Shown: positions 12,041-61,168, counted from the first letter of the stretch. The stretch: DNA of 64,000 nucleotides from Anaerolineales bacterium (GCA_035458505.1 DATHZS010000050.1:6173-70172); one strand, 5' to 3'. Translations and numbers: made by a program. The notes: a model not told the origin generated them from the sequence alone.

Positions 12041-12856
12041 TTATCCCCTGTTATTTTCCATCCACCACACCGCATAGTCTACCAATTCTTTTTGCGGCAT
12101 CAGCCTGGCTTCTGCCATGGCGACCTGACCAAATGTTTCAAGCCCGGTATCGTTGGAAAAGGCTTTCCCAATTTGGGGAAAATCATCAGAATCCAGATTA
12201 AGGTTCGAAAACTCTACCCACTGCCGGCGCCCGTTGACCATCATCGGTGCACCATTTGTGAAATATTTTTTTGTCGTAAGATTGGCTCGGTATTCAGCCA
12301 GGTGGAGCGAGGTGTTGTTGGCATGCCCCACTCCGAGCAGCAGCACCCAGCCTTCCTGCTCGTAGATGCGTGCCAGTGGTGAGCCTTCTCCGAGGCCGTT
12401 TTCAAGGGTGTGTTCATCAACGATGGCCTTCGCTTCTGCCCCCCAGGCCGCGAAAGACAACTGCGGATGGTCGCTGCGGGTCACCCTGTCCTGCTTGCGG
12501 AAAGTCTCTGGGAGGATGCCCATCTTCCAGGTCAGGGTCAGTGCGGGGTCGTAGGCCGGCATGCTGCCGCGGATCGTCTCCCACCAGCTCTCCGGGACGG
12601 GCGGGTTTTGCCATTGTCCCGGGTCAGAAAGATCTCCAGAGTGGGTTGGCATGACTAAGGTCCCCTCCAGTCCAAGCAGTTCTTCAAGTGCCAGGATCAC
12701 GGCCACAGGCCCTCCGCTGATCCAACCCAGGGAATTGAAGGATGAATGAACCAGCAGCACCATGCCCGGCTGGATGCCTAATCCGGTCAGATCCTTTTTC
12801 AGGCTGTCTACTGTAGCTGGGCTGGGTGTGGAGTCAATCTTGCTGTTCCCGGTCAT
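12041..12856 (-). CDS. Aminoglycoside N(3)-acetyltransferase family protein (AAC(3)/YokD-like)
   Basis: 271 aa. LLVHSSFNSLGWISGGPVAVILALEELLG..GTLVMPTHSGDLSDP and LLLGVGHANNTSLHLAEY resemble the AAC(3) fold family as I recall it. Confidence 0.8.
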   Translation of the reverse strand: MTGNSKIDSTPSPATVDSLKKDLTGLGIQPGMVLLVHSSFNSLGWISGGPVAVILALEELLGLEGTLVMPTHSGDLSDPGQWQNPPVPESWWETIRGSMPAYDPALTLTWKMGILPETFRKQDRVTRSDHPQLSFAAWGAEAKAIVDEHTLENGLGEGSPLARIYEQEGWVLLLGVGHANNTSLHLAEYRANLTTKKYFTNGAPMMVNGRRQWVEFSNLNLDSDDFPQIGKAFSNDTGLETFGQVAMAEARLMPQKELVDYAVWWMENNRG

Positions 12857-22500: not shown

Positions 22501-23865
22501 TTAATCAGAAGATTTTTGTCTCTGGGGGTCGTAGATGCGGAAATACGGAGCTTCGGATTTTTTAGCTGCATACATCGCCTCATCCGCTAAGCGAATTAAT
22601 GTTTCATAGTTGTTTCCGTGGTCCGGGAAAATACTTCCGCCAACGCTTACACTGATTTCTATGCGTTGATCCTGGAGGATATATTCGCTGCTGAGCATCG
22701 CGTAGATTTTCTCTGCGACAATACGAGCATGGTCGAATTGTTTGAGCTGGTGTGCGATCAGGGTAAATTCATCACCGGAAATGCGGGAAACCGTATCGTA
22801 TTCTCTCAGGTTGATGCGCAGGCGGTTCGCGATTTCAACCAGCAGCTTGTCTCCGATAAGATGCCCGTAAGAATCGTTGATCGATTTGAAATCGTTCACG
22901 TCCAGGAAAAAAACACCCAGCATCTGGCGGTTGCGCTTGGAATACGAAATGGCATGCTCAAGGATCTCCCGGAACATGATCCGGTTTGGCAGGTTTGTGA
23001 GGGGATCGTGAGTAGCTAAGTGACGGATCTGATTTTCGGTCTGCTTGCGTTCGGTGATATCGGTGACCGTTGCATAAATCATCAGATTGCCATTCTCTTC
23101 CCAGTTGGCTTGTGCATTATTGCTCACCCAGATCGTGTTACCATCCGCACAGCTAATCCGATATTCAAGTTCGCTGCTGATGCCTTTCGCGAGCAGCTCG
23201 ATAAAATTCACCCATCGTGTAACATCATCTGGATGGATAACCGCCTGCCATGCATCCCAGCTGCCTAAGAATTTTTGCAACGGGTACCCGGTCAGTTCTT
23301 GAATGTTTTCAGAAAGGTAGCGGTTTTTAAAACCAGTGGTTGGGGAGTATTCTGCGATGTAGAAATGTGCGCTGACAGAGTTCACCAACAGCCGGAAACG
23401 CTCATCGCTCTCCCGCAGGTTCTCAACCGCTTTTCGGAAAGCAGTGATATCTTGTTTGATCGCAATATAATGGGTGGTTTCACCTGTATCATCCACGACA
23501 GGTGTGATGGTCATATCTTCTTGGTATAAAGTGCCATCTTTTCTCTTGTTGATGACTTCTCCACGCCAGACTTTTCCTGCTGAGATCGTTCTCCATAAAT
23601 CCAGGTAAAAGCTATCAGGATGTTGGTGAGACCGAAAGATGCTGGTCTTTTTATTTTTCAGCTCTTCTGGTGTGTATCCTGTCAGCTTGGTGATAGCTGG
23701 ATTGACCCAGATGATGAACCCATCCCGGTCAGTGATCACGACACCATTTGCAGCAGATTCAAGTGCCGTGATTTGGATATTTTTCAGCTTATCTGTGTGA
23801 ATGCGCTGTGGTTGTTTCATGTCCAACTCATTAAGTGGATGTAGGCTGTGATGTTTTTTTGACAA
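22501..23865 (-). CDS. PAS-PAS-GGDEF diguanylate cyclase (SGDEF variant, RxxD I-site present)
   Basis: Two PAS/PAC blocks (ITDRDGFIIWVNPAITKLTGY...; ...HPDDV...) are followed by HLATHDPLTNLPNR...FLDVNDFKSINDSYGH..GD...REYDTVSRISGDEF. Confidence 0.85.
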   Translation of the reverse strand: MSKKHHSLHPLNELDMKQPQRIHTDKLKNIQITALESAANGVVITDRDGFIIWVNPAITKLTGYTPEELKNKKTSIFRSHQHPDSFYLDLWRTISAGKVWRGEVINKRKDGTLYQEDMTITPVVDDTGETTHYIAIKQDITAFRKAVENLRESDERFRLLVNSVSAHFYIAEYSPTTGFKNRYLSENIQELTGYPLQKFLGSWDAWQAVIHPDDVTRWVNFIELLAKGISSELEYRISCADGNTIWVSNNAQANWEENGNLMIYATVTDITERKQTENQIRHLATHDPLTNLPNRIMFREILEHAISYSKRNRQMLGVFFLDVNDFKSINDSYGHLIGDKLLVEIANRLRINLREYDTVSRISGDEFTLIAHQLKQFDHARIVAEKIYAMLSSEYILQDQRIEISVSVGGSIFPDHGNNYETLIRLADEAMYAAKKSEAPYFRIYDPQRQKSSD

Positions 23866-39423: not shown

Positions 39424-39458
39424 TGCCGGTCTGGTGCATAGATAAGAGGTAATTGAAG

Positions 39459-39923
39459 ATGAAGAAAGATATTCATCCGACTTATTTTCCTGAGGCGCGC
39501 GTGATTTGTGCCTGTGGTGAAACCTGGACAGTTGGATCCACCCAGGAAGAAATTCGCGTCGATATTTGTTCAGCCTGTCACCCATTTTTTACCGGTGAGC
39601 AGCGCATTGTGGACACTGAAGGTCAGGTTGACCGCTTCTACAAGCGGTTGGAAGCTCGCCAGCGTTATGTCAGCGAGCAGGAAGAGCGCGAAGCATCCAA
39701 GACATCCCCCGACCGGGCGTTGAAAGAATTTGAGGTCAGCGCACGGGCAACCAAAATGTTGGTGGATGCAGGTATCCAAACCGCAGGCGACCTGATTGCC
39801 AAACTGCAAGAAGGCGGCGATGAGGCTGTTTTAGCGATTGATGGTTTTGGACGCAAATCCCTGGCCGATTTCAAAAAATCCATGCGCCGCATGGGGTACG
39901 AACTTCCTGAAGATCAGGAATAA
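39459..39923 (+). CDS. rpmE: 50S ribosomal protein L31 fused to a C-terminal helix-hairpin-helix domain resembling the RNAP alpha C-terminal domain
   Basis: [63 protein letters not shown] is L31. An 86-aa extension follows, containing [62 protein letters not shown]. Confidence 0.85.
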
Positions 39924-48727: not shown

Positions 48728-50788
48728 TCAGTAGGCGGGGTGGTAGAAGTGATAGGGCAGGTTTTGATTTTTTGACCTGTACATGGCAGTATCAGCTTGT
48801 TGAATAACTTTTTCCGGTATCAGGGAATCCTGTGGATAGAGGCTGATCCCGATACTTACCCCAATCCTTAAGGATGTCCCCGATACATCAAATGGTGTTT
48901 CCATCCTCTGATTAATTTTGTGGATGATCTTCTCCACATCGGCAACCGATTCCACCCCCTCCAGGAGGAGGGTGAATTCATCCCCGCTCATCCGGGCCAG
49001 GGTATCGTGCTGGCGCACACTGTTTTTCAGTCTGTTGGCGATCTGGATCAAAACCTCATCACCTGCTGCGTGCCCAAATTCATCATTCACATCTTTGAAG
49101 TTATCAAGATCAATGAAAGCAACCGCAACACAATAGTTCCCTACATCGGCATGTTCACATGCGGTCATGAACCTGCTGAAGAACAGCTCCCGGTTGGGCA
49201 GCTTGGTCAACGGGTCGTGAGTGGCGAGGTGGCGCAGGGTGTCTTCATTCTTTTTCCGCTCGCTGATATCTCTAACGATGCAAATGATATTGGTAGGTGC
49301 TTGTTGGTTATCGAATATCACGCCAAAATTGATCTCTACCGGAATGGAGTGCTGATCTTTATGCTTGAATTGCCATTCTGATATCGGCAGGTGGTGCTCA
49401 TGTTTCAGACGATCCAGGGTTTGCCTGAATGTCAGGATCTCCTTTTCGTCAAGGAGGTCCTGGATATGTTTGCCTATTATTTCCTGTGGGCTCAACCCAA
49501 ACAACTCAGTCGCCCGCTGATTTGATTCCAGGATCATTCCCTCCAATGCAATCATCAGGACAGCGTCATTGGCCTGGTTGAACAGGGTTCTGAAGCTGTA
49601 TTCGCTTTGCCAGAGCTCATTTTCCATTTCTACCTGTTGGGTAATTTCCCGAACGTTCACCACAATCCCGCTGACCGAGTCAATGTGCAGCATGTTGATC
49701 AGTGTACTGTCAAAATAAAGCCAGCGGCCATCCCTGTGCAGCCCCAAAATCGGTCCTGATTTAAGCACGGTGCCGGGAGGGCTGATGAGGATTTCCTCGA
49801 ACAATTTGATCACTTGGTGTTGATGGTCCGGGTGAACGAACTCTTCAAAGCGATGGTTGAGTACCATCCGGGGTTCAAACTTGGTGATATTGATACTGGA
49901 AGGGCTGATGTATTCAATCACGCTTTCCTCATTGAGGATCATGGTAATATCGGATGAATGCTCTGTGATCGAACGGAAGCGTTCTTCGCTGGTTTTCAGG
50001 GCTTGCTGGGCTTCTACCCGGGAGGTAATATCCATGAGAACTCCCTGGCCTCCACTGACCTGGCCCTGGTCGAACAACAATTCCACCACATTTGCCACCC
50101 ATAGTTTGCGTTGATCTTTGGTGATGATCGGGAATTCAGCGTAGGTTTTTTGAGTTTTGTTCTTTATCTGCCGGGCATAGAATAAATTAGTTTTGATCCG
50201 CCAATCGGGATGGATCAGCTCTGCGAAATGTTTCCCGATCAGTTCTTTTGGGGTAAATCCGCTCAGGCTTTCTGCTGAAGGTGTAATGTATTCTACCCGG
50301 CCAAACTCATCAAACAGGACAATGATATTACTGCTGTGGTTGAGCAACTGGCGGTAGCGTTTTTCGCTTTGTCTTAATGCTGCGGAAACCTGGTGCCGGT
50401 TCTGTAAGGCTTGCTGGTACCTCAGGCGGGTCTCCTGCAAGTACCCGACCAGATAAGGGCCCAGGATAAAGATCAGGTACAGGCAGACAAAAATGTAATA
50501 GAAATACCATTCCCCCACTTCAGCCATCAGCGGCAGCTGCATCCACCTGAAAATAAAATAGTTGATCGGGCCAAAGAGAATTCCCACGGCCAGCCCCCAC
50601 CGGCGTCCGAGCAAAAAGCCGGCTATTAAAGTGGGAAAGAAATAAAATGTGAGCGCTGCCCGGTCAAGTTGGTTGAACAGAAAAGGGAAACAGAGGATAT
50701 AAATTGACAGGGATACCGGCACCACCCAGATCCTTTTAAGGGCGTCAATCGAGCGGATTTTTTCTTGAAACGTAACGAGCTCTTTCAT
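48728..50788 (-). CDS. Membrane-anchored multi-PAS diguanylate cyclase (SGDEF variant with RxxD I-site)
   Basis: 686 aa. The N-terminus has ~4-5 TM helices. At least three PAS/PAC units follow, then HLATHDPLTKLPNR...FIDLDNFKDVNDEFGH..GD...RQHDTLARMSGDEF. Confidence 0.85.
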   Translation of the reverse strand: MKELVTFQEKIRSIDALKRIWVVPVSLSIYILCFPFLFNQLDRAALTFYFFPTLIAGFLLGRRWGLAVGILFGPINYFIFRWMQLPLMAEVGEWYFYYIFVCLYLIFILGPYLVGYLQETRLRYQQALQNRHQVSAALRQSEKRYRQLLNHSSNIIVLFDEFGRVEYITPSAESLSGFTPKELIGKHFAELIHPDWRIKTNLFYARQIKNKTQKTYAEFPIITKDQRKLWVANVVELLFDQGQVSGGQGVLMDITSRVEAQQALKTSEERFRSITEHSSDITMILNEESVIEYISPSSINITKFEPRMVLNHRFEEFVHPDHQHQVIKLFEEILISPPGTVLKSGPILGLHRDGRWLYFDSTLINMLHIDSVSGIVVNVREITQQVEMENELWQSEYSFRTLFNQANDAVLMIALEGMILESNQRATELFGLSPQEIIGKHIQDLLDEKEILTFRQTLDRLKHEHHLPISEWQFKHKDQHSIPVEINFGVIFDNQQAPTNIICIVRDISERKKNEDTLRHLATHDPLTKLPNRELFFSRFMTACEHADVGNYCVAVAFIDLDNFKDVNDEFGHAAGDEVLIQIANRLKNSVRQHDTLARMSGDEFTLLLEGVESVADVEKIIHKINQRMETPFDVSGTSLRIGVSIGISLYPQDSLIPEKVIQQADTAMYRSKNQNLPYHFYHPAY

Positions 50789-50872: not shown

Positions 50873-50914
50873 GGAAAAATAAAAACAACTTGAGTGAGTC
50901 CACTCAAGTTGTTT
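50873..50914 (-). terminator. Strong rho-independent terminator closing the 56777-50934 minus-strand unit
   Basis: 14-bp stem AAACAACTTGAGTG / CACTCAAGTTGTTT, 4-nt loop. On the minus strand it is followed by TTTTTATTTTT. Confidence 0.7.
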
Positions 50915-50933
50915 CGGGTTTGGTTCGCTGGCC

Positions 50934-52160
50934 TTATGGGCCCCACTGAAGTTGATATCCATTAATGCCTAGAGGTATGACAGGCTCCTCAGAGGGAGGG
51001 ATAACCACAATTGGACCGGTGCGCGGCCATCCGGCAGGCTCGCCGGTAACCGGTTGGACGGCAGCTGCAAGGCTGCCATCTTCAGCCCAGAGCACTTCAT
51101 AATTAAGCCAATGGTCTGGCCTTAGGATTGTACGGCTGCTCACTCCATCGCTGGCGCTGTTCACCAGCAGCAGTGGGACTTCACCGCTGGGAAATGAGGG
51201 GGTATTTGTGTAAAAATACCGGATGTCTCCATTTTCCAGCACGACTGGCCACCCTGCAAAGTTCAGCGTATCATCCTGCGAGGTGGTTGGGATTAACTCG
51301 GTTTCGATACCAGTCGTCGTGTCGATCCGCCACAAACCAGAGTCCACCATCCCCAGATATGGACTGGCGATGACGATGGAGCGGCTGTCGGGCGACCAGG
51401 TGGGTTGGCAGCAGACGATCCCTTCTCCCAATTTCAACACCTCAGGATTCCCGGGGGTGTAGAGTCCAAGCGTTCCGGCTTCGTAATAGCCGATATTGAG
51501 TAAAAGTTGGCTGCCATCTGGAGACCATTGATACGGGGAATAAATCGCTTCTGGAAAGAGCATTCCCTCCCCGCGATCCTCCAGATCATTGGGCAGAATA
51601 TGCTCATCTTGCCGGGTGTCAAAATGGTAGAGATGAAGCCCGTTTCTGCCGTAGGCCAGGGTGCTGCCATCCGGCGACCAGCTCAGGCCGCTGATCTTTT
51701 GTGTGAAGAAATATTCATCTGTTTCAGTATTCGCCTCGCTTCCATCCACCAGGATCTCGTGTTGCTCTCCAGTAGAATTGAGCACATGAAGCTGGTTGTT
51801 TGTGATATAGGCGATGCGGCCATCAGCCTGCGATACCGCAAACTCATCAACCGAACCTGTTTCTGCGGTTACTCTTGAGGTGGTAGTTCCATCCCGGCTG
51901 AGTACCCAGACCTGAAAATTCTCACCATCTGCGCTGCTTAGGTAATACAGCGCATGCGGTAAAAGGGTGTCTGGATCCTGGGTGTTTTGTACCAATATCG
52001 GGGTGTCTTGTGGTGTGCCGGCCCCGAGCGCGGTTTGCGTGCCTGCGACATTTGTTGCAACTAATGCATCAGATGCGCTCCCTGTACCGGAGTTGTTCGC
52101 GGGCAGGGTGCATCCGATCAGCACCATACAAGTGAACAAAATAAAAATGATCTGTTTCAT
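50934..52160 (-). CDS. TolB/PD40-like beta-propeller lipoprotein
   Basis: The signal peptide plus lipobox is FTCMVLIGCT. Repeated WSPDGS-type motifs (LSWSPDGSTLAY, YQWSPDGSQLLL, PTWSPDSRSIVI) are present. Confidence 0.7.
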   Translation of the reverse strand: MKQIIFILFTCMVLIGCTLPANNSGTGSASDALVATNVAGTQTALGAGTPQDTPILVQNTQDPDTLLPHALYYLSSADGENFQVWVLSRDGTTTSRVTAETGSVDEFAVSQADGRIAYITNNQLHVLNSTGEQHEILVDGSEANTETDEYFFTQKISGLSWSPDGSTLAYGRNGLHLYHFDTRQDEHILPNDLEDRGEGMLFPEAIYSPYQWSPDGSQLLLNIGYYEAGTLGLYTPGNPEVLKLGEGIVCCQPTWSPDSRSIVIASPYLGMVDSGLWRIDTTTGIETELIPTTSQDDTLNFAGWPVVLENGDIRYFYTNTPSFPSGEVPLLLVNSASDGVSSRTILRPDHWLNYEVLWAEDGSLAAAVQPVTGEPAGWPRTGPIVVIPPSEEPVIPLGINGYQLQWGP

Positions 52161-52165
52161 CGGAC

Positions 52166-52432
52166 TTACACCTGGTGAAATTGATCCACATTGATCACAA
52201 AGAGGGTGGCGCGTTTCATGCCTGCTTCTTCCGGTTCTTTAACCGTATCTCGAATGATTTGGATCGCATGTTCAACCTTTTCATTGTCCACGCCTGCGAT
52301 CATGGTTGAATTTCCCCGGCGAAAATATGCACCAGTGGATGGCAGCAAGGTGACGGGATAGCCTGCCCGGTTGAGTGCAGTAGCTACTTCATCTTTATCC
52401 GAGTCTTGTAAGATGCAAATAATCATTTTCAT
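52166..52432 (-). CDS. DarA/PstA-like PII-fold protein (cyclic-di-AMP receptor family, DUF970), short 88-aa form
   Basis: The protein reads MKMIICILQDSDKDEVATALNRAGYPVTLLPSTGAYFRRGNSTMIAGVDNEKVEHAIQIIRD...RATLFVINVDQFHQV. It parallels B. subtilis DarA/YaaQ as I recall it (MKLIVAVVQDQDSNRLL...TTGGFLKSGNTTFMIGVED...ATVFVLPVDEFHQF). Confidence 0.75.
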   Translation of the reverse strand: MKMIICILQDSDKDEVATALNRAGYPVTLLPSTGAYFRRGNSTMIAGVDNEKVEHAIQIIRDTVKEPEEAGMKRATLFVINVDQFHQV

Positions 52433-52434
52433 GG

Positions 52435-54279
52435 TTAAATTTCCTCATAATGTTCGACGTTGAATACGTAAACATTTGAATTGTTAATTTTGATTTCTTT
52501 CTCTGACTGGCTGCCAGGTAAAGGTAACAGGTTGAAAAGCCCTCGGCGGAATGTGGGGGTTTCCTCACAGCAATTGATAATCGTTTCGACAACGTCCTCC
52601 ACCTGTGTTTCTTCAATGCCGATCAACAAGGTGATGGAGGGTAGCCCGCTGGGACCCAGATGACTTGCCAGCCGGGTTGTGGGGATGCCCATGATGCTCA
52701 TCATATGCAAAGTTTCGTACATATCCGCTTCAGCCACGGAGGCAAAGATCAGTTTTGAAATCGGTGGTTGGTCTTTGGTCCGGCGGGTCAGCAGGTCGCC
52801 ATAGCTCAGATCCTGGTTCAGTAAGGCTGCATCCACCTCGTTCACCAGCAAGGTAAAGGTATCTTTGTTGATCGTCCCGGTTGATAAGAGGTTGTTATAG
52901 GTGTTTCGCTGAGTTCGCAGCATTTCCTGAAAAGCCTTGTCGAGTTCGGCCACTTCAACACTGCTATCTGAGTTCATAATATCGTGCACCAGTTCTTTTC
53001 TTAGCTCGATCTGCCGCAAAATGGGAACTTCTAATATTGTCCAGGCGTGTTCGGAGATCAGGCCTTCCGCACGCAGTTCTTTGAGCCGGTCGTAGGAGTG
53101 TTGAGAGGCGACAGCGCGCGCCTGATGCCGTTCGTACGCTTCCTGGGTCTTTGTGCGGGCTCCAAAGCCTAGACGTTTGATGATCGGGCGCATGGTGGTA
53201 CCCTGGACCAGCAAGGTAAAGAGAACAACGCCAAAGGTCATATCTTGCAGCAAAGTTTGGGTATCCAATCCGAGTGATTCGGGCAGGGTGAGGGCCAGGG
53301 CCAGAGAGATGGCTCCCCGCAAGCCACCCCAGTAAATCACATGCTGCATGCGAAAGGGGATCCTGAAAAAGCGAGTGGAGAGAGGGTATATGACCACGGC
53401 CCGGGCGAAGAGCACTGCGGCGATCGCAAAAAGAATTGGCTGCCAGCTGGAGAGCAGAGCCGCCAGGTCAATCACGAGCCCGATCAACAAAAAAGCAAAG
53501 GAGTTTGCCAGGTATGCCGCTAATTCCCAGAAATTGAACAAACTGATCCGGGTGGTGGGGCTCATCCCGCGCTCCCCAAGATTACCGATGACCAAACCGG
53601 CAACAACCACAGCCAGCACACCACTGACGTGAATTTCCTCCGCAATCAGGTAAGAGCCATACGCGGCGACAGTGGTCAGGGTGACTTCAATCAGGTGGTT
53701 GTTGACCAGCCGGATAATGTAAGACATGATCCAACTGACGATGGCTCCGACGATAATCCCTCCACCAGCCGTCAGGATGAAGTTCGTGACCAGCCCGGTT
53801 ACGCTGAACTCGGTCACTCCGAGAGCGATGGCGATCATCAGGTTGAAGATCACGATGGCAGTACCATCATTGAACAGGCTTTCACCTTCCAACAGGATGA
53901 GGAGTTGTTGCGGCACTCCTAATGCTCGGAAGAGGGCGACCACTGCGACCGGGTCGGTTGCGGCAATCAGTGCCCCAAAAATAAGCGCAACCTGGAGTGG
54001 AATTGCGGTTCCCCAGGAGACGATTAAACCGACCAGGAGCATCGTGATCAGAACACCGGGAATGGCAAATGCTACGATTTCCTTGAAATGCCGCCGAAGT
54101 TCTTCAAATTTAATATGAAAAGCGGCTTCAAATATCAGCGGCGGGACCAAAATGGTCAGAATTAGCTCCGGTACCAACAATCCGCTCAGCGGAAGTTCAC
54201 CCATGATTGGAGAAGCGACCTGCTGCAGCACCACAGCAAGCCCTAACCCCATCAGGACGAGCCCAACGGTGTATGGCAT
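52435..54279 (-). CDS. CPA1 (NhaP-type) Na+(K+)/H+ antiporter with C-terminal DarA/PstA-like domain; true 5' end probably upstream of 54279
   Basis: The transporter core has LIFGALIAATDPVAV, EGESLFNDGTAIV and WGGLRGAISLALAL. A long cytoplasmic tail follows. Its last 106 aa (52438-52755) repeat the DarA-like pattern KLIFASV...TRLAS...ITLLIGIEE...VYVFNVEHYEEI. The in-frame region 54280-54375 encodes a further TM helix but has no ATG/GTG/TTG. Confidence 0.85.
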   Translation of the reverse strand: MPYTVGLVLMGLGLAVVLQQVASPIMGELPLSGLLVPELILTILVPPLIFEAAFHIKFEELRRHFKEIVAFAIPGVLITMLLVGLIVSWGTAIPLQVALIFGALIAATDPVAVVALFRALGVPQQLLILLEGESLFNDGTAIVIFNLMIAIALGVTEFSVTGLVTNFILTAGGGIIVGAIVSWIMSYIIRLVNNHLIEVTLTTVAAYGSYLIAEEIHVSGVLAVVVAGLVIGNLGERGMSPTTRISLFNFWELAAYLANSFAFLLIGLVIDLAALLSSWQPILFAIAAVLFARAVVIYPLSTRFFRIPFRMQHVIYWGGLRGAISLALALTLPESLGLDTQTLLQDMTFGVVLFTLLVQGTTMRPIIKRLGFGARTKTQEAYERHQARAVASQHSYDRLKELRAEGLISEHAWTILEVPILRQIELRKELVHDIMNSDSSVEVAELDKAFQEMLRTQRNTYNNLLSTGTINKDTFTLLVNEVDAALLNQDLSYGDLLTRRTKDQPPISKLIFASVAEADMYETLHMMSIMGIPTTRLASHLGPSGLPSITLLIGIEETQVEDVVETIINCCEETPTFRRGLFNLLPLPGSQSEKEIKINNSNVYVFNVEHYEEI

Positions 54280-54371
54280 GCGTAATCTTTGGACTGCAAT
54301 CCCGACAATACTGGCAATAAAGATCAGGCCAATAAAGATTTGCAGAAACGGGAGTAACTCATGTGAGTTTT

Positions 54372-56777
54372 CTATGTTTCTTCCTCCAATTGTGTAGGGA
54401 TATTTTCTACCAGACAGGGAATCTGATCTGAAATGACCGTTCTTTCCCCATCAAGAAAACGTATCTCTACTTGTTCAGCAGAACTAATTATCCAGGTGCC
54501 ATGATAACATATTCTCACTGGCCAGGGAAAAGGGTTTTTATGCAGGACCTGGACTTTCCAGGGTGAGATGGGGCGGATGCCGACGATTTCTAAAAATTGA
54601 CCCGCTGATGGTAGTCCGATCAGATGGTTGCGCTGCCCGGAGGCTGACAATTGACTGGAATGGTAGAAGGTTCGGAAGCTGTCTTCCTGTTTCAGGTTAT
54701 GAATGATCGCCTGCATCAGGCGTGAGAAGATTTCTGCCGCTTTCTCGGTTTCACCATACTCCAGCAAGCCTTCAACAACCATGGCATTCCAGGGCAGCCA
54801 GGTGAGCAGGCCGGTTTCTTCAGCCTCTTTGGTGTTCGGTTTTGGGAGGGCCGGAATCCCATACGGCTGGTTGTAAAAACTATCGTTAAATAGCTTGCGC
54901 TCAAGGATCCTGTCTAGCTGTTTTTCCGTAACCATTTTTGCCCAGATCGGTGTGAGCAAGGTATGATCGTCCTGATAATGATCGGTGACTTGCAGGACAG
55001 CTCTGCCTTTGGAGGGTAAGCCGGAGATATGGATGTGTTCGATCTCTGAATAGAGGTTTGGCAGAGTATAAATGCAGATTCCCTGCACCCACACCAGGTA
55101 TTCCGGCTGGATGGTTTCCACCCGGTGCTGCCCGTTGGGCAGGTAGCCGTGGATGGAGATTTCCACCTGGGGTTTGGGTGAATCCTCTGCTTCAAGGCGG
55201 ATTTGTAAACGTGTGGGCAGATCAAAAACGAGGTCGATGAGGATTTCTCCAGACCCGGTGCGCTCTCCGAGATTTTCACCTTTTTGGGTTTCGTGGCTGT
55301 CCCGATCCCAATACTGGAAGGACCCGCGGCGCCCATTCCAGGAATTTTGAACGGCACTGTGGAGGTTGTTGGAGAGAGCCTCCAGGTAGGTGAGAGGTTC
55401 TTTTTGATCGGTGATCTCTGCGATCTTTTTCAGCAGGACGGTTTCACGGTAAAGATAAGCGCTCAGGTCTGGGCTTTCGACTGCGGTAATTTCGGTCCCT
55501 TGCGCCCAGGGTTGCCAGCGAGAAAAGAACGGGTTCTCATCGTAACCTGTCTGGACCAGGTTGCCCCATTCCGGAATGCCGTCTGAATCTCGGTCGTTGC
55601 TTTCCCAAAACCAGGTTTGCAGATACCACAGCAGAGGGCGAAATACCCGAGAGAGGAAAGTCCGGTCTTCGGTGAACTGGTAGATCCGCCATGCCAGGCT
55701 GACCAGGAATGGGGCGGCAGATAAGCTGCTGCGCTGCCCCCCAAGTCCAGGTTTGTGATCTACAAACCCGTTTTCCTGCTGGTGGTGGATGAAATTTTCC
55801 AGCACACCGGTAGCAATGGCTGAATTTCCGGGAAGCAAAAAATGGGAAAGATACCAGGCCTCCAGGGGTGTCTGCCCATTCCAGAGGTGATTGTATTCCG
55901 CACCGCTGCCCTGTTGGGAGTATCCCTGATCGGGCAACCGGGTTGAAACAAAGCTGGTGTGCGGCAGATGTTCGCTTCCGGCAAAGAGCAGATTGAGAGC
56001 CGCTTTCTGGCTAAATGCCAGGGCTGCATCCCAATCCGGCTCACCGGTGTATATCTCGGGGAGTTGGGAGGCGAGCATTTTGATCCGGATGATTTCTGCA
56101 TCCCAGTTCTGAGAAGCAGTCAGGCGTGCGTGCCGGAAGGCTTCTTCCTCATCCGGGAGAGCAGTCTGAATCCATGTAAAGCGGCGAAACTGTCCCGGGG
56201 CCAGTTCCAAATTGTGAAACAGGTTGGGGTAGGGGCTGGCTTCTCCTTCTGCTCCGCCCGTAATGAAAAAAATTGGTGACAGGTCTTCTGTTTGTCCCTG
56301 AAGGACGGTGGTTGCTTCCCTTTTACGCGGGACCATGGGTCTGCCTTCTGGGTTGGGAGTCAGAACCACCGCCATCTCAAAGCGCAGTTTTCGCTCCAGA
56401 TCGCCAACGTTTTCGATCCATACCCGCCCCGCTGCTGTTTGGCTGTCGGGAATCCAATATTCCATCAGGACATCAATGCCTGGATAGGGAGAAAATTTAA
56501 GTTTCGCGTAGTTGGGAGCAAACTCGACAATCGTCAGTGGGGTATCGAATTCTGCTGGATTGGAAACAGTTTGGTGCGATTCAACAAACTGCGGAAAAAT
56601 TCGCATGCTGCGGGCCCGCAGACCGAAGGTGGTTTGGAGAACCACCGCAGCAGGGTCACTCCGCCCGATCATCAGTTCCCAGATCTGATCGTTGGCATAA
56701 GACAGGGGGCTTAGACGCGGGTCGGCAGCAAGTACCAGATGTTTCGGGTCATCAAGGTGCAGTTTCCATGTACGCAT
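54372..56777 (-). CDS. Putative (alpha/alpha)6-barrel glycoside hydrolase (GH63/MGH1/GDE_C-like)
   Basis: 801 aa. The central region LEAWYLSHFLL...ENFIHHQQENGFVDHKPG...APFLVSLAWRIYQFTEDRTFL...DSDGIPEWGN...GYDENPFF resembles six-hairpin glycosidases. The family assignment is tentative. Confidence 0.55.
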   Translation of the reverse strand: MRTWKLHLDDPKHLVLAADPRLSPLSYANDQIWELMIGRSDPAAVVLQTTFGLRARSMRIFPQFVESHQTVSNPAEFDTPLTIVEFAPNYAKLKFSPYPGIDVLMEYWIPDSQTAAGRVWIENVGDLERKLRFEMAVVLTPNPEGRPMVPRKREATTVLQGQTEDLSPIFFITGGAEGEASPYPNLFHNLELAPGQFRRFTWIQTALPDEEEAFRHARLTASQNWDAEIIRIKMLASQLPEIYTGEPDWDAALAFSQKAALNLLFAGSEHLPHTSFVSTRLPDQGYSQQGSGAEYNHLWNGQTPLEAWYLSHFLLPGNSAIATGVLENFIHHQQENGFVDHKPGLGGQRSSLSAAPFLVSLAWRIYQFTEDRTFLSRVFRPLLWYLQTWFWESNDRDSDGIPEWGNLVQTGYDENPFFSRWQPWAQGTEITAVESPDLSAYLYRETVLLKKIAEITDQKEPLTYLEALSNNLHSAVQNSWNGRRGSFQYWDRDSHETQKGENLGERTGSGEILIDLVFDLPTRLQIRLEAEDSPKPQVEISIHGYLPNGQHRVETIQPEYLVWVQGICIYTLPNLYSEIEHIHISGLPSKGRAVLQVTDHYQDDHTLLTPIWAKMVTEKQLDRILERKLFNDSFYNQPYGIPALPKPNTKEAEETGLLTWLPWNAMVVEGLLEYGETEKAAEIFSRLMQAIIHNLKQEDSFRTFYHSSQLSASGQRNHLIGLPSAGQFLEIVGIRPISPWKVQVLHKNPFPWPVRICYHGTWIISSAEQVEIRFLDGERTVISDQIPCLVENIPTQLEEET

Positions 56778-57502: not shown

Positions 57503-57526
57503 GCACAGGCCAATTAAGGTGTGAGT

Positions 57527-60500
57527 ATGGGAACTGAAGAAGAACGCCCTGATCTGGATGATCATGATGGGGATGAAATCGAGGAAAACCCGATTGATCG
57601 TTTTCGGCGATTGACCTCCAGTTCATCTGAGCCGCAGGAACCTCCAACCGACGATACTTTGGGTTTATACCGCGCTGGACCTGCACCGAAGCCTGATTCT
57701 GAGGATGCAGGGAAAATTGGCGATACCCCAGATCATACCTTTGGATGGCATGGCATCGGGCGTGGGGAGTCAGAACCCCCTCAGCCACCAGAGCACGATG
57801 TAACCGAAGAAGAAGATTCTTCACAGTCAGCACCTCTTTCAGAGACAGGGGATGAACCGCTTGATCTGGCAGGCACAGGCGAAGCGGATGATGCTCAGCC
57901 CGCAGATGCCCTCCCACCAGATCCTGACGCGGATGACTCCTCCAAACAAGAGGGACCCCAGAGTGACAAGTCTCAACCTAAACCACGGGCGGATTTTCTC
58001 CCGGTAATCTCCCCGGAAGATCGGGACTCAAGACCAGAACCTGGTCAGGAAAAAACGGATCTTTATGCGCATTTGGGAGATACTCCACCAAGCACAGGCC
58101 GTCGCAAGGAACAGATTCCACCTCCGCCGCCCTTGGGGCGTTCTGGTCAGACACCTCCCCCGGCACTGGATGAGGAAGGGATGCCGCTGCCCCGTAAGGT
58201 GACCGAAGACGATCTGGATGCAACACGGGTATCCCCCGCGGCTTTCACCCCGCCTTCCAGCCAACCGGGGCGCAAACCGACTCAACCTCCACCCAGGCGC
58301 CGTCCGGTACGTTCTGTACCAGCCTCAACACCCAACAAAAGCCAACGCCGGCGAACCAAGCCGCCCCGCGCGCCGAAGACCCAGCGGCAGCCAGGCCCCC
58401 CATGGTTTGGAAATTGTTTTGCGAGGGCATCGATCATGCTGCTTTTCCTGGGGCTGATCTTCCTGGTTGGTGCTTTTTCCTTTATGCTGGTGCAGTATTA
58501 CAGGATTTCCTCCACCCTTCCGGATGTTGAAGCGGAGGATATCCGCGGCCGGATATCCCAATTTGAGACAACCCGAATCCTGGACCGCAATGGAGACCTG
58601 CTGTACGAAATCATCGACCCGAACGCAGGACGCAGAACCTATGTCACTTTGGATGAGATTTCTCCCTACATCGTCGCGGCTACTGTCGCCACAGAAGATA
58701 AAGATTTTTACAGTCATCCCGGGGTCAATTCATTTGCCATCATCCGCGCTTTTGTTCAAAATGCCCAGAGCGGGGAAGTAGTTTCAGGCGCTTCCTCGAT
58801 CACGCAGCAAGTGGCCAGGATGTTGTTCCTGGAACCGGAGGAAGCCTCCCAGCGCACCTATCTCCGAAAGGTCAAGGAAGCCATTCTGGCGATTGAACTG
58901 ACCAATAAATATACCAAGGATGAGATTCTTGAACTCTACCTCAACGAGAATTTCTACGGCAATCTGGCATATGGGATTGAGGCGGCCGCCGAAACTTATT
59001 TTGGCACCACAGCGGATAAGATCACCCTGGAGCAAGGTGCATTTTTAGCTGGCCTGCCCCAGGCGCCTTCGGTATACGATGTGTACACCAACCGGCGGGT
59101 GGCTCTAGACCGTCAGAAGTATGTGGTGCAGCTGATGTATCAGGCCAGCCTGGACCAAAACTGCATCTATGTTTCTAACAGCATTCAGCGCATTTGCGTG
59201 GACTATGATACCGCTTCCCAGGCCGCTTTCGCCCTGGAAGATTATGAGTTTAATCAACCCGAAGTTCGGATGCGCTTCCCGCACTGGGTGAATTACATCC
59301 GCACCTTGCTGGAATTGCAGTATGACGCCCAGACGATCTACCGCTCCGGATTCACCGTAGAGACGACAATTGATCCCCGCCTCCAGCAAATGGCAGTTAA
59401 TACCCTGCAATCGAATATCGGCAAGCTGCAAGGCAGCAATGTTCAGAGCGGGGCATTGGTAGCTGCCATCCCGGTTTCCGGAGAAATCCTGGCCATGGTG
59501 GGCTCGGTCGATTTTTATAATGAGGAGATCGATGGGCAGATCAATATGGCGGATTCCCCGCGTCAGCCTGGTTCCGCGATCAAACCGGTCACCTATATCG
59601 CAGCCTTTGAAAAAGGCTGGACGCCGGCTACGCTGATCTGGGATGTGGAAACGGAATTTCCCCCTTCGGGTAATCCCAACGATCCAAGCCCTCCGTATAT
59701 TCCGGTTAATTATGATGAAAAATATCACGGCCCGGTGACGGTGCGGACTGCGCTGGGAAGTTCTTACAACGTACCAGCCGTCAAGGCATTGGATTTTGTT
59801 GGTATTTATGATGATCCCAACACGCCTGTTGAAGATGGGATGATCGCCATGGGGCAGCGTTTGGGAATCACCACCTGGGATAAAAGTGAATATTACGGGC
59901 TTGCCCTTACCCTGGGCAGCGGCAGTGTGAAATTGGTGGATATGGTGTCTGTCTATGGGGTGTTTGCGAATATGGGCAAAAAGGTTCCCCTGGTTGCGAT
60001 TACCCGCATCACCGACTCCACAGGAGCAGTGTTGTTTGAGCACCAGCCTACTGACGGGGAGCAGGTTGTGCGGCCAGAACATGCGTACCTGATCTCGGAT
60101 ATCCTCTCGGATAACATAGCCAGAACCCCTGGTTTTGGCCCAAATTCCCTCCTGAAGCTGCCCTTCCCTGCGGCTGTTAAAACAGGAACCACCAACGATT
60201 TTAGAGATAACTGGACAATTGGCTACACACCCAACCTGGTGGTTGGAGTGTGGGTCGGGAACCCGGATAATACGGCGATGGCGAAAGGTGTCAGCGGTGT
60301 AACGGGGGCTGGGCCGGTCTGGGCAGAGTATATGCTCTCGGCTGTGCAGGAGCTGGAAGGGGCTAATCCGGCATCCTTCCTCAAACCGCCCGGAATTGTG
60401 GAAGTGATCGTGTGTGAGGTTTCAGGAACCATCCCATCCAAGTACTGCCCGAATCAGCGGAGGGAGATCTTTGCCCGCGACCAGCTTCCCCTGCCTGAAA

Positions 60501-61168
60501 CTGAGGATTTATGGAAAGAAGTCGAGGTGGATACCTGGACGCAGATGTTCCCCTCAAATGAATGTGGGGATTTCCGCGCCCGGCAATTGGTCTTGAATGA
60601 GACCGAGTTTTGGGCCCAGGAATGGATCCTGGATACCGGGGCGGGGCAGTCCTGGGCCGAAGAGATCGGGTTTAAACGGCCGGCGTATTTTATCCCCCAA
60701 AAGAAATGCGAACAAAACGATGACCCAGCAATACTCTCTTTTGAAGGGCTTTCCGAAAACCAGCAAATTACTACGACAGAACTCCCAATCATCCTGCGGG
60801 TGTGGGGTGGAGCCCGGTTTAGACAATTTACTCTATCTTACCGGGTATTGCCTGGCACCAGTTGGACTCAACTGCAAAGTTTTACCGAACAGAGCAAGGA
60901 GCCGAAAGATTTTTATGTCTGGGACCTTGCAGAAGTTCCGGATGGCAAGATCGAGCTGCGTGTCAGGATGGAAGGCAAGAGGAACGCTGTGGCTGAGAAA
61001 GTGATTACCCTGGAAATTATCCAGCCGACTCCCACGCCGACACCCACGCCTACAGAGACACCCACCCCAACCATTACGCCCACTCCGACAGAGACCTTGA
61101 CCCCAACGGCAACCTTTACGCCATCTAGCACCCCTACACCTAGTATAACGCCTACAGAAAAACCATAG
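57527..61168 (+). CDS. Class A penicillin-binding protein (glycosyltransferase + transpeptidase) with ~295-aa disordered cytoplasmic N-terminal tail and Thr/Pro-rich C-terminal tail
   Basis: GT51 motifs are ATEDKDFYSHPG, GASSITQQVAR and KDEILELYLN. Transpeptidase motifs are SPRQPGSAIKP (SxxK), SYN (SxN) and KTGTTND (KTG). There is a single TM at about aa 297-327. The start is ATG 57527 after AAGGTG. Confidence 0.9.
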   Translation: MGTEEERPDLDDHDGDEIEENPIDRFRRLTSSSSEPQEPPTDDTLGLYRAGPAPKPDSEDAGKIGDTPDHTFGWHGIGRGESEPPQPPEHDVTEEEDSSQSAPLSETGDEPLDLAGTGEADDAQPADALPPDPDADDSSKQEGPQSDKSQPKPRADFLPVISPEDRDSRPEPGQEKTDLYAHLGDTPPSTGRRKEQIPPPPPLGRSGQTPPPALDEEGMPLPRKVTEDDLDATRVSPAAFTPPSSQPGRKPTQPPPRRRPVRSVPASTPNKSQRRRTKPPRAPKTQRQPGPPWFGNCFARASIMLLFLGLIFLVGAFSFMLVQYYRISSTLPDVEAEDIRGRISQFETTRILDRNGDLLYEIIDPNAGRRTYVTLDEISPYIVAATVATEDKDFYSHPGVNSFAIIRAFVQNAQSGEVVSGASSITQQVARMLFLEPEEASQRTYLRKVKEAILAIELTNKYTKDEILELYLNENFYGNLAYGIEAAAETYFGTTADKITLEQGAFLAGLPQAPSVYDVYTNRRVALDRQKYVVQLMYQASLDQNCIYVSNSIQRICVDYDTASQAAFALEDYEFNQPEVRMRFPHWVNYIRTLLELQYDAQTIYRSGFTVETTIDPRLQQMAVNTLQSNIGKLQGSNVQSGALVAAIPVSGEILAMVGSVDFYNEEIDGQINMADSPRQPGSAIKPVTYIAAFEKGWTPATLIWDVETEFPPSGNPNDPSPPYIPVNYDEKYHGPVTVRTALGSSYNVPAVKALDFVGIYDDPNTPVEDGMIAMGQRLGITTWDKSEYYGLALTLGSGSVKLVDMVSVYGVFANMGKKVPLVAITRITDSTGAVLFEHQPTDGEQVVRPEHAYLISDILSDNIARTPGFGPNSLLKLPFPAAVKTGTTNDFRDNWTIGYTPNLVVGVWVGNPDNTAMAKGVSGVTGAGPVWAEYMLSAVQELEGANPASFLKPPGIVEVIVCEVSGTIPSKYCPNQRREIFARDQLPLPETEDLWKEVEVDTWTQMFPSNECGDFRARQLVLNETEFWAQEWILDTGAGQSWAEEIGFKRPAYFIPQKKCEQNDDPAILSFEGLSENQQITTTELPIILRVWGGARFRQFTLSYRVLPGTSWTQLQSFTEQSKEPKDFYVWDLAEVPDGKIELRVRMEGKRNAVAEKVITLEIIQPTPTPTPTPTETPTPTITPTPTETLTPTATFTPSSTPTPSITPTEKP
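61022..61165 (+). repeat. Imperfect ACN-CCN (Thr-Pro) coding repeat at the PBP C-terminus
   Basis: It encodes PTPTPTPTPTETPTPTITPTPTETLTPTATFTPSSTPTPSITPTEKP. Confidence 0.8.

Follow-up and report, generated by a model that had tools for sequence, protein, structure and literature searches.

The window analysed here, a stretch of 64,000 nucleotides (nt) from an Anaerolineales bacterium (GCA_035458505.1 DATHZS010000050.1:6173-70172), carries on its minus strand a CPA1-class cation/proton antiporter that ends in a domain related to DarA/PstA, the PII-like receptor of cyclic di-AMP (c-di-AMP), and, just downstream, a free-standing small paralogue of this domain. We name the fused domain, or tail, L (long) and the small paralogue S (short). 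Both had been pointed out in a first-pass annotation of the DNA, whose open reading frame (ORF) coordinates and quoted sequences are found on the minus strand: the antiporter ORF of 614 amino acids (aa) at 52435-54279 and the S ORF of 88 aa at 52166-52432. The locus is best read as four genes in one operon of a member of the Anaerolineae (Chloroflexota), coding for an MGH1-like hydrolase, the CPA1 antiporter, S and a β-propeller lipoprotein. Its features are the following.

54372-56777, minus strand: MGH1-like glycoside hydrolase (GH37/GH63 six-hairpin clan), 801 aa, cytoplasmic, assigned by PF22422; first gene of the cluster.
54373-54387, minus strand: GGAGGA (54387-54382), 6 nt, and ATA (54375-54373) overlapping the hydrolase TAG stop; the antiporter probably starts at this non-canonical codon.
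53128-54375, minus strand: CPA1 transmembrane transport domain (Na_H_Exchanger) with ATDP and FNDG motifs, delimited by Pfam and TIGR00831.
52765-53127, minus strand: helical cytoplasmic linker of ~120 aa, residues 385-505 of the 614-aa call, deduced from TIGR00831 coverage and the SOS1 alignment.
52438-52764, minus strand: L module, a full-length PstA/DarA-like PII-fold domain fused to the antiporter, identified by CdAMP_rec and by AlphaFold2 (AF2) with Foldseek.
52166-52432, minus strand: S module, a free-standing 88-aa DarA-like protein without B'-loop, identified by CdAMP_rec, the match to PstA and AF2 with Foldseek.
52304-52339, minus strand: part of the S T'-loop, STGAYFRRGNST (residues 32-43), which corresponds in the alignment to PstA to the c-di-AMP motif TGGFLxxGNTT.
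50934-52160, minus strand: predicted lipoprotein of 408 aa with PD40/TolB-like β-propeller repeats, 5 nt after the S stop.
50882-50915, minus strand: terminator-like hairpin with a 15-bp stem and a T-run, the probable operon end.

The junction between antiporter and S reads ...GAGGAAATT TAA cc ATG. The antiporter stop (52437-52435) is separated by 2 nt from the ATG of S (52432), and the GAGGA Shine-Dalgarno sequence of S lies inside the last codons of the antiporter. Translation of S is tightly coupled to that of L. Equivalents of the lipoprotein are found downstream of S in L081 and L082, two close relatives of the window locus that belong to the same clade.

The two segments were compared with hidden Markov models and with known folds. 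S gives a strong hit to CdAMP_rec (PF06153; 74.2 bits, 1.2e-20, for a gathering score of 27 bits) that covers only positions 1-66 of the 109 of the profile, and phmmer links it to PstA of L. monocytogenes (4rww, 3.7e-14), PstA of S. aureus and YaaQ/DarA of B. subtilis. The match of the tail is borderline when the full-length antiporter is searched (25.9 bits, residues 509-611) and rises to 30.5 bits (4.5e-7) when the tail is searched alone, the alignment then covering profile positions 2-107 of 109. The AF2 model of S, built like that of the tail from a family alignment, has a predicted local distance difference test score (pLDDT) of 90.1 and is matched by Foldseek to PstA with an E-value of 1.5e-8 and a template-modelling score of 0.82. 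The tail model (pLDDT 81.6) has PstA structures 4d3h, 3m05, 4rww and 4wk1 as its top matches in the PDB (E 3.8e-5). Canonical PII structures rank below PstA/DarA for tail and S alike. The canonical PII profile (PF00543, cutoff 25 bits) gives no match for the tail and 20.4 bits for S, and the TGxxGDGKI B-loop motif of canonical PII, looked for by reading both sequences, is in neither. CdAMP_rec matches with PstA as nearest structure bear out the first-pass proposal that the antiporter carboxyl terminus and the 88-aa ORF are PstA/DarA-type PII-fold modules. With 71.7 bits for S and 29.7 bits for the tail against NF058593, the NCBIfam DarA equivalog whose cutoff is 140 bits, the two are best described by these profiles as relatives of DarA and not as DarA orthologues. 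The S family is compact: its 126 members all have 88-89 aa, with a mean column identity of 72%. Both copies had been thought to be shortened in the long loop; this holds for S, which is without ~21 residues of the B'-loop, and not for the tail, whose loop has normal length.

The transport part of the antiporter was assigned with confidence. Residues 1-368 match Na_H_Exchanger (PF00999; 1.3e-75) and the protein scores 292.3 bits against TIGR00831 a_cpa1 (cutoff 279.6). D109, N137, D138, R293 and R321, which we take to be residues with an ion-binding role, are invariant in 88 antiporter homologues, and SOS1 has the same ATDP and FNDG motifs at the aligned positions. The best relatives in the PDB are plant SOS1/NHX7 (1.8e-58), sperm SLC9C1 and NHEs, NhaP1 and PaNhaP being more distant. 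Of the earlier label "NhaP-type", the CPA1 class is kept (TIGR00831), while the likeness to NhaP is only loose. The SOS1 alignment spans the helical region that follows the membrane domain, up to residue 518 of the 646-aa form of the protein described below, and these alignments make the antiporter an a_cpa1 exchanger (TIGR00831) whose helical extension resembles that of SOS1. The K+/H+ equivalog models score below cutoff and the exchanged cation may be Na+ or K+; neither the antiporter nor its neighbours have a match to a TrkA_C/RCK_C domain.

The called ATG (54279) omits a conserved first transmembrane segment that is encoded in frame upstream (54280-54387 region, minus strand). There is no ATG, GTG or TTG in frame within the stretch coding for this segment. 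The 77%-identical relative L081 (9890-10000) has the same GGAGGA/ATA layout with the antiporter start overlapping the hydrolase stop. The antiporter probably starts at the non-canonical ATA 54375, or through translational coupling, yielding a putative protein of 646 aa.

The tail is a constant part of this antiporter group. It is present in 120/120 of the nearest antiporter homologues among the matches listed, whose source names, where given, are Anaerolineales, Anaerolineae or Chloroflexota. In genomes of GTDB species the tail is found in at least 18 loci, Chloroflexota throughout among the matches listed, which sets a lower bound to its taxonomic range; CPA1 relatives of other phyla in the same scan align only to ~residue 490. 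Homologues with at least 50% identity to the window protein share a degenerate tail, and others at ~47-51% identity (626-704 aa) carry canonical LPSTGGFLGRRNVTLLIG...VGGATIFTFEVERYEEF motifs (VGGATIF). From this distribution the fusion is a family trait with an intact ancestor.

L is accompanied by S throughout the family. S is directly downstream of antiporter::L in 38 of 42 loci and of a free L gene in 34 of 35, together 72/77, and the gap from the L stop to the S start has a median of 2 nt (-1 to +4 nt in 85/91 pairs). A metagenome scan queried with the S family, and so independent of the antiporter, gave 80 loci in which the gene directly before S on the same strand is antiporter::L (30), a free L (31) or an L cut by the contig end (9); five of the remaining loci have no usable upstream DNA and five have no L. 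The GTDB fusions listed, all with canonical tails, have one to three S genes immediately downstream in 14 of 18 cases. Conservation and synteny hold over more than 100 loci, and the association of fusion and paralogue first noticed in the window is thus a conserved one across the loci surveyed. Subfunctionalisation, with S confined to loci in which the tail has degenerated, is ruled out by the canonical-tail GTDB fusions that also carry S. Searching 1.84 billion cluster representatives with a tail profile returned 2027 relatives at E <= 1e-3. Among the best 150 of these 2027, 37 are single-chain L-S proteins of 206-260 aa, with an amino-terminal L, a short linker and a carboxyl-terminal S, one cluster having 46 members; fusion matches in this library of 50%-identity representatives are mostly C-terminal fragments and give no clean count of fusions. 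Genes that lie side by side, are coupled and at times fuse typically code for subunits of a single complex. The pair of L and S is obligate and takes three forms: L fused to the antiporter and followed by S, a free L with S, and L-S in a single chain. The mixed trimers put forward in the first-pass annotation are a possible further step beyond this pairing.

Several individual loci complete this description. The tandem L-S proteins P0246, P0248, P0254, P0260, P0261 and others have canonical GGFL/GN motifs in both halves; no conserved neighbours of stand-alone tandem L-S genes were found in loci L083-L085. L147 and L149 (3998-4267) have S genes without upstream L or antiporter. A flavin reductase is encoded near S in L147, as it is beside the cluster in the window, and L147 may be a remnant of the cluster. 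In L007 (12145-14331), CPA1::L and S are followed by a CPA2/Kef-type antiporter (405 aa), a 122-aa ORF with weak P-II likeness, a gene for a free, long DarA-like protein (112 aa) and another S. Clusters with DarA-like modules thus include more than one type of antiporter.

The residues kept by L and S can be read against the ligand site of PstA. This site for c-di-AMP lies at the subunit interface, where one monomer provides R26, T28, G47 and Q/H108 and its neighbour provides G34-G35-F36-L37, N41, the G94-G95-A96 kink, T97 and F99 (PMC4316997, PMC4475381). Substitutions T28A, N41A and GGFL to AAAA abolish or strongly weaken binding of c-di-AMP, and PstA deleted of the B'-loop (delta 71-87) still binds it in lysates (PMC4316997). 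We counted these positions, in PstA numbering, in the unique sequences of S (n = 101) and of free L (n = 53). S has T28 in 101 sequences, G47 in 100, R26 in 84 and Q108 in 83, together with T97 in 99 and F99 in 97; position 36 is aromatic (F in 80, Y in 19), about half of the proteins have S or V in place of N41, and a conserved K-R pair stands in place of G94-G95. Free L has R26 in none, T28 in 31 and, at position 108, E in 44. The B'-loop is retained in free L along with G34 (46), F36 (45), L37 (47), N41 (46), G94 (47), G95 (50), A96 (49) and F99 (52), the counts for the GGFL positions ranging over 34-47. The B'-loop (residues 65-94) and the GGA kink are gone in S (KRA) and intact in canonical L; the window tail has a loop of normal length but NNS at the kink. 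Family-wide, then, L retains the loop-bearing half of the PstA site and S the other half, which suggests a heteromer with composite rather than homomeric sites. Complementary half-sites of this kind are the pattern predicted for functional sites at L/S interfaces.

A second S subtype reads GGF(L/M)R(R/S)GVVT, with V in place of N41 (L007 14068-14331, L010 5812-6090, L011 ~7580-7843, L004 5417-5692). Its gene comes after a second, free L in L007 and L011, is the second of two S genes in L004 and comes, in L010, after a tail encoded in an ORF of its own, apart from the antiporter. Proteins of this subtype may bind c-di-AMP differently or not at all, because N41A weakens c-di-AMP binding in PstA.

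The scheme is altered in both partners together in the clade of the window, where the tail is degenerate and S carries GAYF. Relative to PstA the window tail has GGFL changed to LGPS, N41 to S, GGA to NNS, T97 to N and Q108 to E, keeping T28, T43 and G47; in its T'-loop stretch, TRLASHLGPSGLPSIT, T28 and T43 are present with GGFL and N41 gone. The window S reads TLLPSTGAYFRRGNST, in which T28, G34, N41 and T43 are kept and GGFL is replaced by GAYF. Over its whole length it keeps T28, N41, T43, G47, T97, F99 and Q108 and is changed at R26 (P) and at GGA (KRA). The loop consensus of S in this clade is LPSTGAYFRRGN(A/S)T, with G34, R39, G40 and T43 invariant and T33, F37, R38 and N41 at 90% or more. 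GAYF occurs in 28 of the 101 unique S sequences and is the fixed variant in the consensus of the window clade. Direct sensing of c-di-AMP by the fused domain is unlikely for the window tail because the PstA binding residues GGFL, N41, GGA and T97 are lost. If a ligand is sensed, this would be done by S or, where relatives have canonical tails, at the interface of L and S. In the window clade, the tail would have become a pseudo-receptor scaffold and sensing would rest on S with its GAYF loop.

We privilege, at roughly even odds, the hypothesis that L and S make up a heteromeric PII-like sensor attached to the antiporter by its linker, with a nucleotide, most likely c-di-AMP, modulating the exchange activity and possibly the hydrolase. 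The two modules would form a heteromeric PII-like cap over the cytoplasmic face of the dimeric antiporter, and two antiporter tails plus one S per trimer could be guessed as its stoichiometry. Nucleotide sites would be built at the subunit interfaces, L giving the T'-loop/B'-loop half (GGFL, N41, GGA, T97, F99) and S the other half (R26, T28, G47, Q108). Binding of the ligand, most likely c-di-AMP, would alter this cap, and the change would be passed on by the helical linker and tune cation/H+ exchange. L/S may in addition control the co-transcribed hydrolase, coupling ion export to breakdown of compatible solutes. Characterised cytoplasmic enzymes of the hydrolase clan cleave compatible solutes, among them trehalose, mannosylglycerate and glucosylglycerate. 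The balance of potassium and osmolytes is under the control of c-di-AMP, without which many bacteria cannot live. A coupling of ion export to solute breakdown by L/S would fit the known role of c-di-AMP in osmotic homeostasis. In B. subtilis c-di-AMP stimulates cation export via CpaA/KhtTU-type systems, and its role is described as stimulating cation export and limiting osmolyte accumulation (PMC10636490).

A number of observations weigh against such a sensor. The canonical composite site cannot, judging from its residues, form in the window, where the tail has no GGFL, N41, GGA or T97 and S has P for R26 and GAYF. The scores of S and tail against the DarA equivalog (71.7 and 29.7 bits for a cutoff of 140) are low. 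PII-like proteins are trimers and CPA antiporters dimers, a symmetry mismatch for any complex of the two. L-S pairs also occur without an antiporter and 12 of the 28 complete antiporter::L fusions have no hydrolase upstream; neither antiporter nor hydrolase is a universal partner. Finally, searches of the 64-kb window and of 1.58 Mb of related loci brought up neither a diadenylate cyclase nor a c-di-AMP phosphodiesterase; these sequences are small parts of genomes and leave the cyclase negative uninformative about the whole genome. The cyclase search combined a motif scan of window and loci, Pfam on ~50 window ORFs and tblastn with a CdaA probe against the 1.58 Mb. No ydaO riboswitch is present in the window and 15 loci, which yielded only tRNAs and one 6S RNA.

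The hydrolase has also to be weighed as partner. It has 59.4 bits against PF22422 (cutoff 27) and a weaker Trehalase match. A single-sequence search of the PDB gave no match; a profile of 14 orthologues extends the homology to YgjK (GH63; 5e-8), trehalase TreA (2.8e-5) and TTHA0978/4wva of T. thermophilus (1.4e-4). The conserved Chloroflexota cluster consists of the hydrolase, then antiporter::L or free L, then S. Fusion to the antiporter could be a secondary, lineage-specific step that tethers L/S at the membrane or ensures its co-expression without gating transport, the primary target of L/S being the MGH1-like hydrolase; many PII proteins likewise have enzymes as targets. Free L-S pairs agree with this view, since 24 of 35 lie directly behind the hydrolase with no antiporter (6 more free L genes are second pairs behind an antiporter or S). 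The hydrolase is also directly upstream of 14 of the 28 complete antiporter::L genes, with 2 more nearby, and the hydrolase stop and the antiporter start share nucleotides in both the window and L081. However, the twelve fusions without upstream hydrolase and the further L/S modules tied to a second antiporter in L007 speak against this view. The covalent fusion in all 120 nearest homologues listed, and in many Anaerolineae genomes, is a stronger kind of evidence of a link both physical and functional, natural gene fusions being among the most reliable predictors of physical partners. We regard the hydrolase as an unlikely primary target, noting that its control and that of the antiporter are not mutually exclusive. 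The antiporter, put forward initially as a target class for this receptor family, keeps that place by virtue of the covalent fusion, but it is not the only candidate because the L-S pair is also found directly behind the hydrolase without it.

The nature of the ligand is a separate question. The modules could bind ATP/ADP, cAMP, another cyclic dinucleotide or no ligand, at least in the window clade, and work as an energy-state or structural module. Scores far below the DarA equivalog cutoff go in this direction, as do the fixation of GAYF for GGFL, P for R26 and a degenerate tail in the window clade, the S or V at N41 in about half of S, the K-R pair replacing G94-G95 and the absence of a cyclase from the window and related loci. 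As SbtB shows, PII-like proteins can take several adenine nucleotides (PMC8654305, PMC9974498). Against this, the c-di-AMP contacts of PstA are precisely the residues retained: T28, T43, G47, T97 and F99 are near-invariant in S, and GGFL/N41/GGA are conserved in canonical L. Moreover, the Walker-like TGxxGDGKI motif with which PII binds ATP (PMC4316997) is in neither module. A ligand other than c-di-AMP, or none, is judged improbable.

It is still less probable, and in our view very doubtful, that the window tail is a decaying relic without regulatory role and that S works alone on unrelated targets. Ligand residues are lost from the tail, and no other part of the protein evolves as fast: within the clade, mean identity to the window protein is 49% in the tail, compared to 58% in the linker and 68% in the membrane domain. 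Yet the tail is full length, has a confident predicted PII fold and carries motifs specific to its clade (IPTTRL, TLLIG, FRRGLFNLLP, VYVFNVEHYEEI) that are conserved in dozens of homologues down to ~50% identity, and S is still translationally coupled to it. That the whole resemblance is an artefact of annotation or chance, such as a spurious ORF or a low-complexity match, could be imagined from the 25.9 bits of the full-length antiporter just under the gathering score of 27, but is practically negligible, being already contradicted by the isolated tail that passes the cutoff, by PstA coming first in the fold search and by synteny over more than 100 loci.

The arrangement favoured here, a two-paralogue sensor on the antiporter, has likenesses to several known systems. 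It shares with PstA/DarA (PF06153; 4rww, 4d3h, 4wk1, 4rle) the PII-like ferredoxin fold, the short T'-loop architecture and the ligand residues T28, N41, T43, G47, T97, F99 and Q108 in S and GGFL, N41, GGA, T97 and F99 in canonical L. Known members are, however, free-standing homotrimers of ~109 aa with three c-di-AMP sites between subunits, single copy in most bacteria, whereas two specialised paralogues co-occur here: L with a B'-loop, no R26, E108 and a transporter fusion, S with no B'-loop and K-R for G94-G95. NifI1/NifI2 and GlnB/GlnK are PII paralogues that work as hetero-oligomers, the NifI pair being encoded side by side; these are canonical ATP/2-oxoglutarate-binding PII proteins of nitrogen control, and they are not known to us to include a division into complementary half-sites, a subunit without the loop or a tandem in a single chain. 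SOS1/NHX7 and SLC9C1 are the closest solved relatives of transport domain and helical linker. SOS1 and SLC9C1 have a cyclic-nucleotide-binding domain after the equivalent linker, at the place where the DarA-like domain sits here; their regulatory domain thus differs in fold from PII, and they have no separate small subunit. CpaA and KhtT/KhtU of Firmicutes are likewise monovalent cation/proton antiporters under a cytoplasmic domain from a c-di-AMP-receptor family, but they are CPA2 proteins that sense through RCK_C/TrkA_C (PMC7288161), whereas CPA1 is combined here with a PII fold. In GlnK-AmtB, SbtB-SbtA and PII-NrtBCD (PMC9974498, PDB entry 8wm7), a PII-superfamily protein is encoded beside a membrane transporter and acts on it. 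There the regulator is a homotrimer of its own that binds reversibly to a trimeric or ABC-type partner, in contrast to one paralogue fused to a transporter of a dimer-forming family with a second, obligate one alongside. The output of PII regulators is thought to run through their long loop (PMC4475381).

Control of cation/proton antiporters by c-di-AMP, through RCK_C, and control of transporters by PII-like proteins are both already known. Within the library searched, no paper was found on a DarA/PstA-type domain on a transporter, in agreement with the first-pass statement that no example had been described, nor any on L/S pairing, on PF06153/DUF970 fusions or on c-di-AMP signalling in Anaerolineae/Chloroflexi. 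Databases already hold the architecture, as precomputed Pfam PF00999 plus PF06153, and some S proteins bear the name "cyclic-di-AMP receptor" at NCBI. The target of PII-like DarA/PstA proteins had been called hard to pin down. This agrees with a 2023 review that still lists partner and function of DarA as open (PMC10636490), but candidates are now named in a 2026 preprint that proposes GlnR/GlnA as partners of S. aureus PstA (PMC13484208).

Other ORFs of the window deserve mention. Two PAS-PAS-GGDEF diguanylate cyclases are encoded at 22501-23865 and 48728-50788, the second being membrane-anchored and located just past the operon terminator on the same strand. ORF 39453-39923 (156 aa) is an unusual fusion of ribosomal protein L31 (residues 3-66) with a segment resembling the RNA polymerase alpha C-terminal domain (77-144). 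ORF 12041-12856 has a strong match to Antibiotic_NAT, the aminoglycoside 3-N-acetyltransferase family (8.6e-90), in an environmental Anaerolineae chromosome. The product of 57521-61168 is a class A penicillin-binding protein of 1215 aa with a proline-rich amino-terminal extension of ~300 aa and a carboxyl-terminal Pro-Thr repeat tail.

The fusion and the hydrolase cluster give concrete candidate classes of partners for DarA/PstA proteins, consistent with the physiology of c-di-AMP. The obligate pairing of long and short paralogues, their half-sites and the single-chain forms predict a heteromeric PII architecture that is undescribed for the DarA family. A broader proposal, tentative and with the odds somewhat against it, is that the DarA/PstA-type proteins of Chloroflexota are obligate two-paralogue heteromers, wired by fusion to a CPA1 antiporter and by operon to a hydrolase of the compatible-solute type. 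If a two-paralogue heteromer wired to the antiporter is confirmed, it would be the first structurally defined class of DarA effectors and would represent a new heteromeric, symmetry-mismatched mode of PII signalling. Even with a different ligand, the L/S antiporter would offer a tractable model for the regulation of a dimeric secondary transporter by a sensor of trimeric fold.

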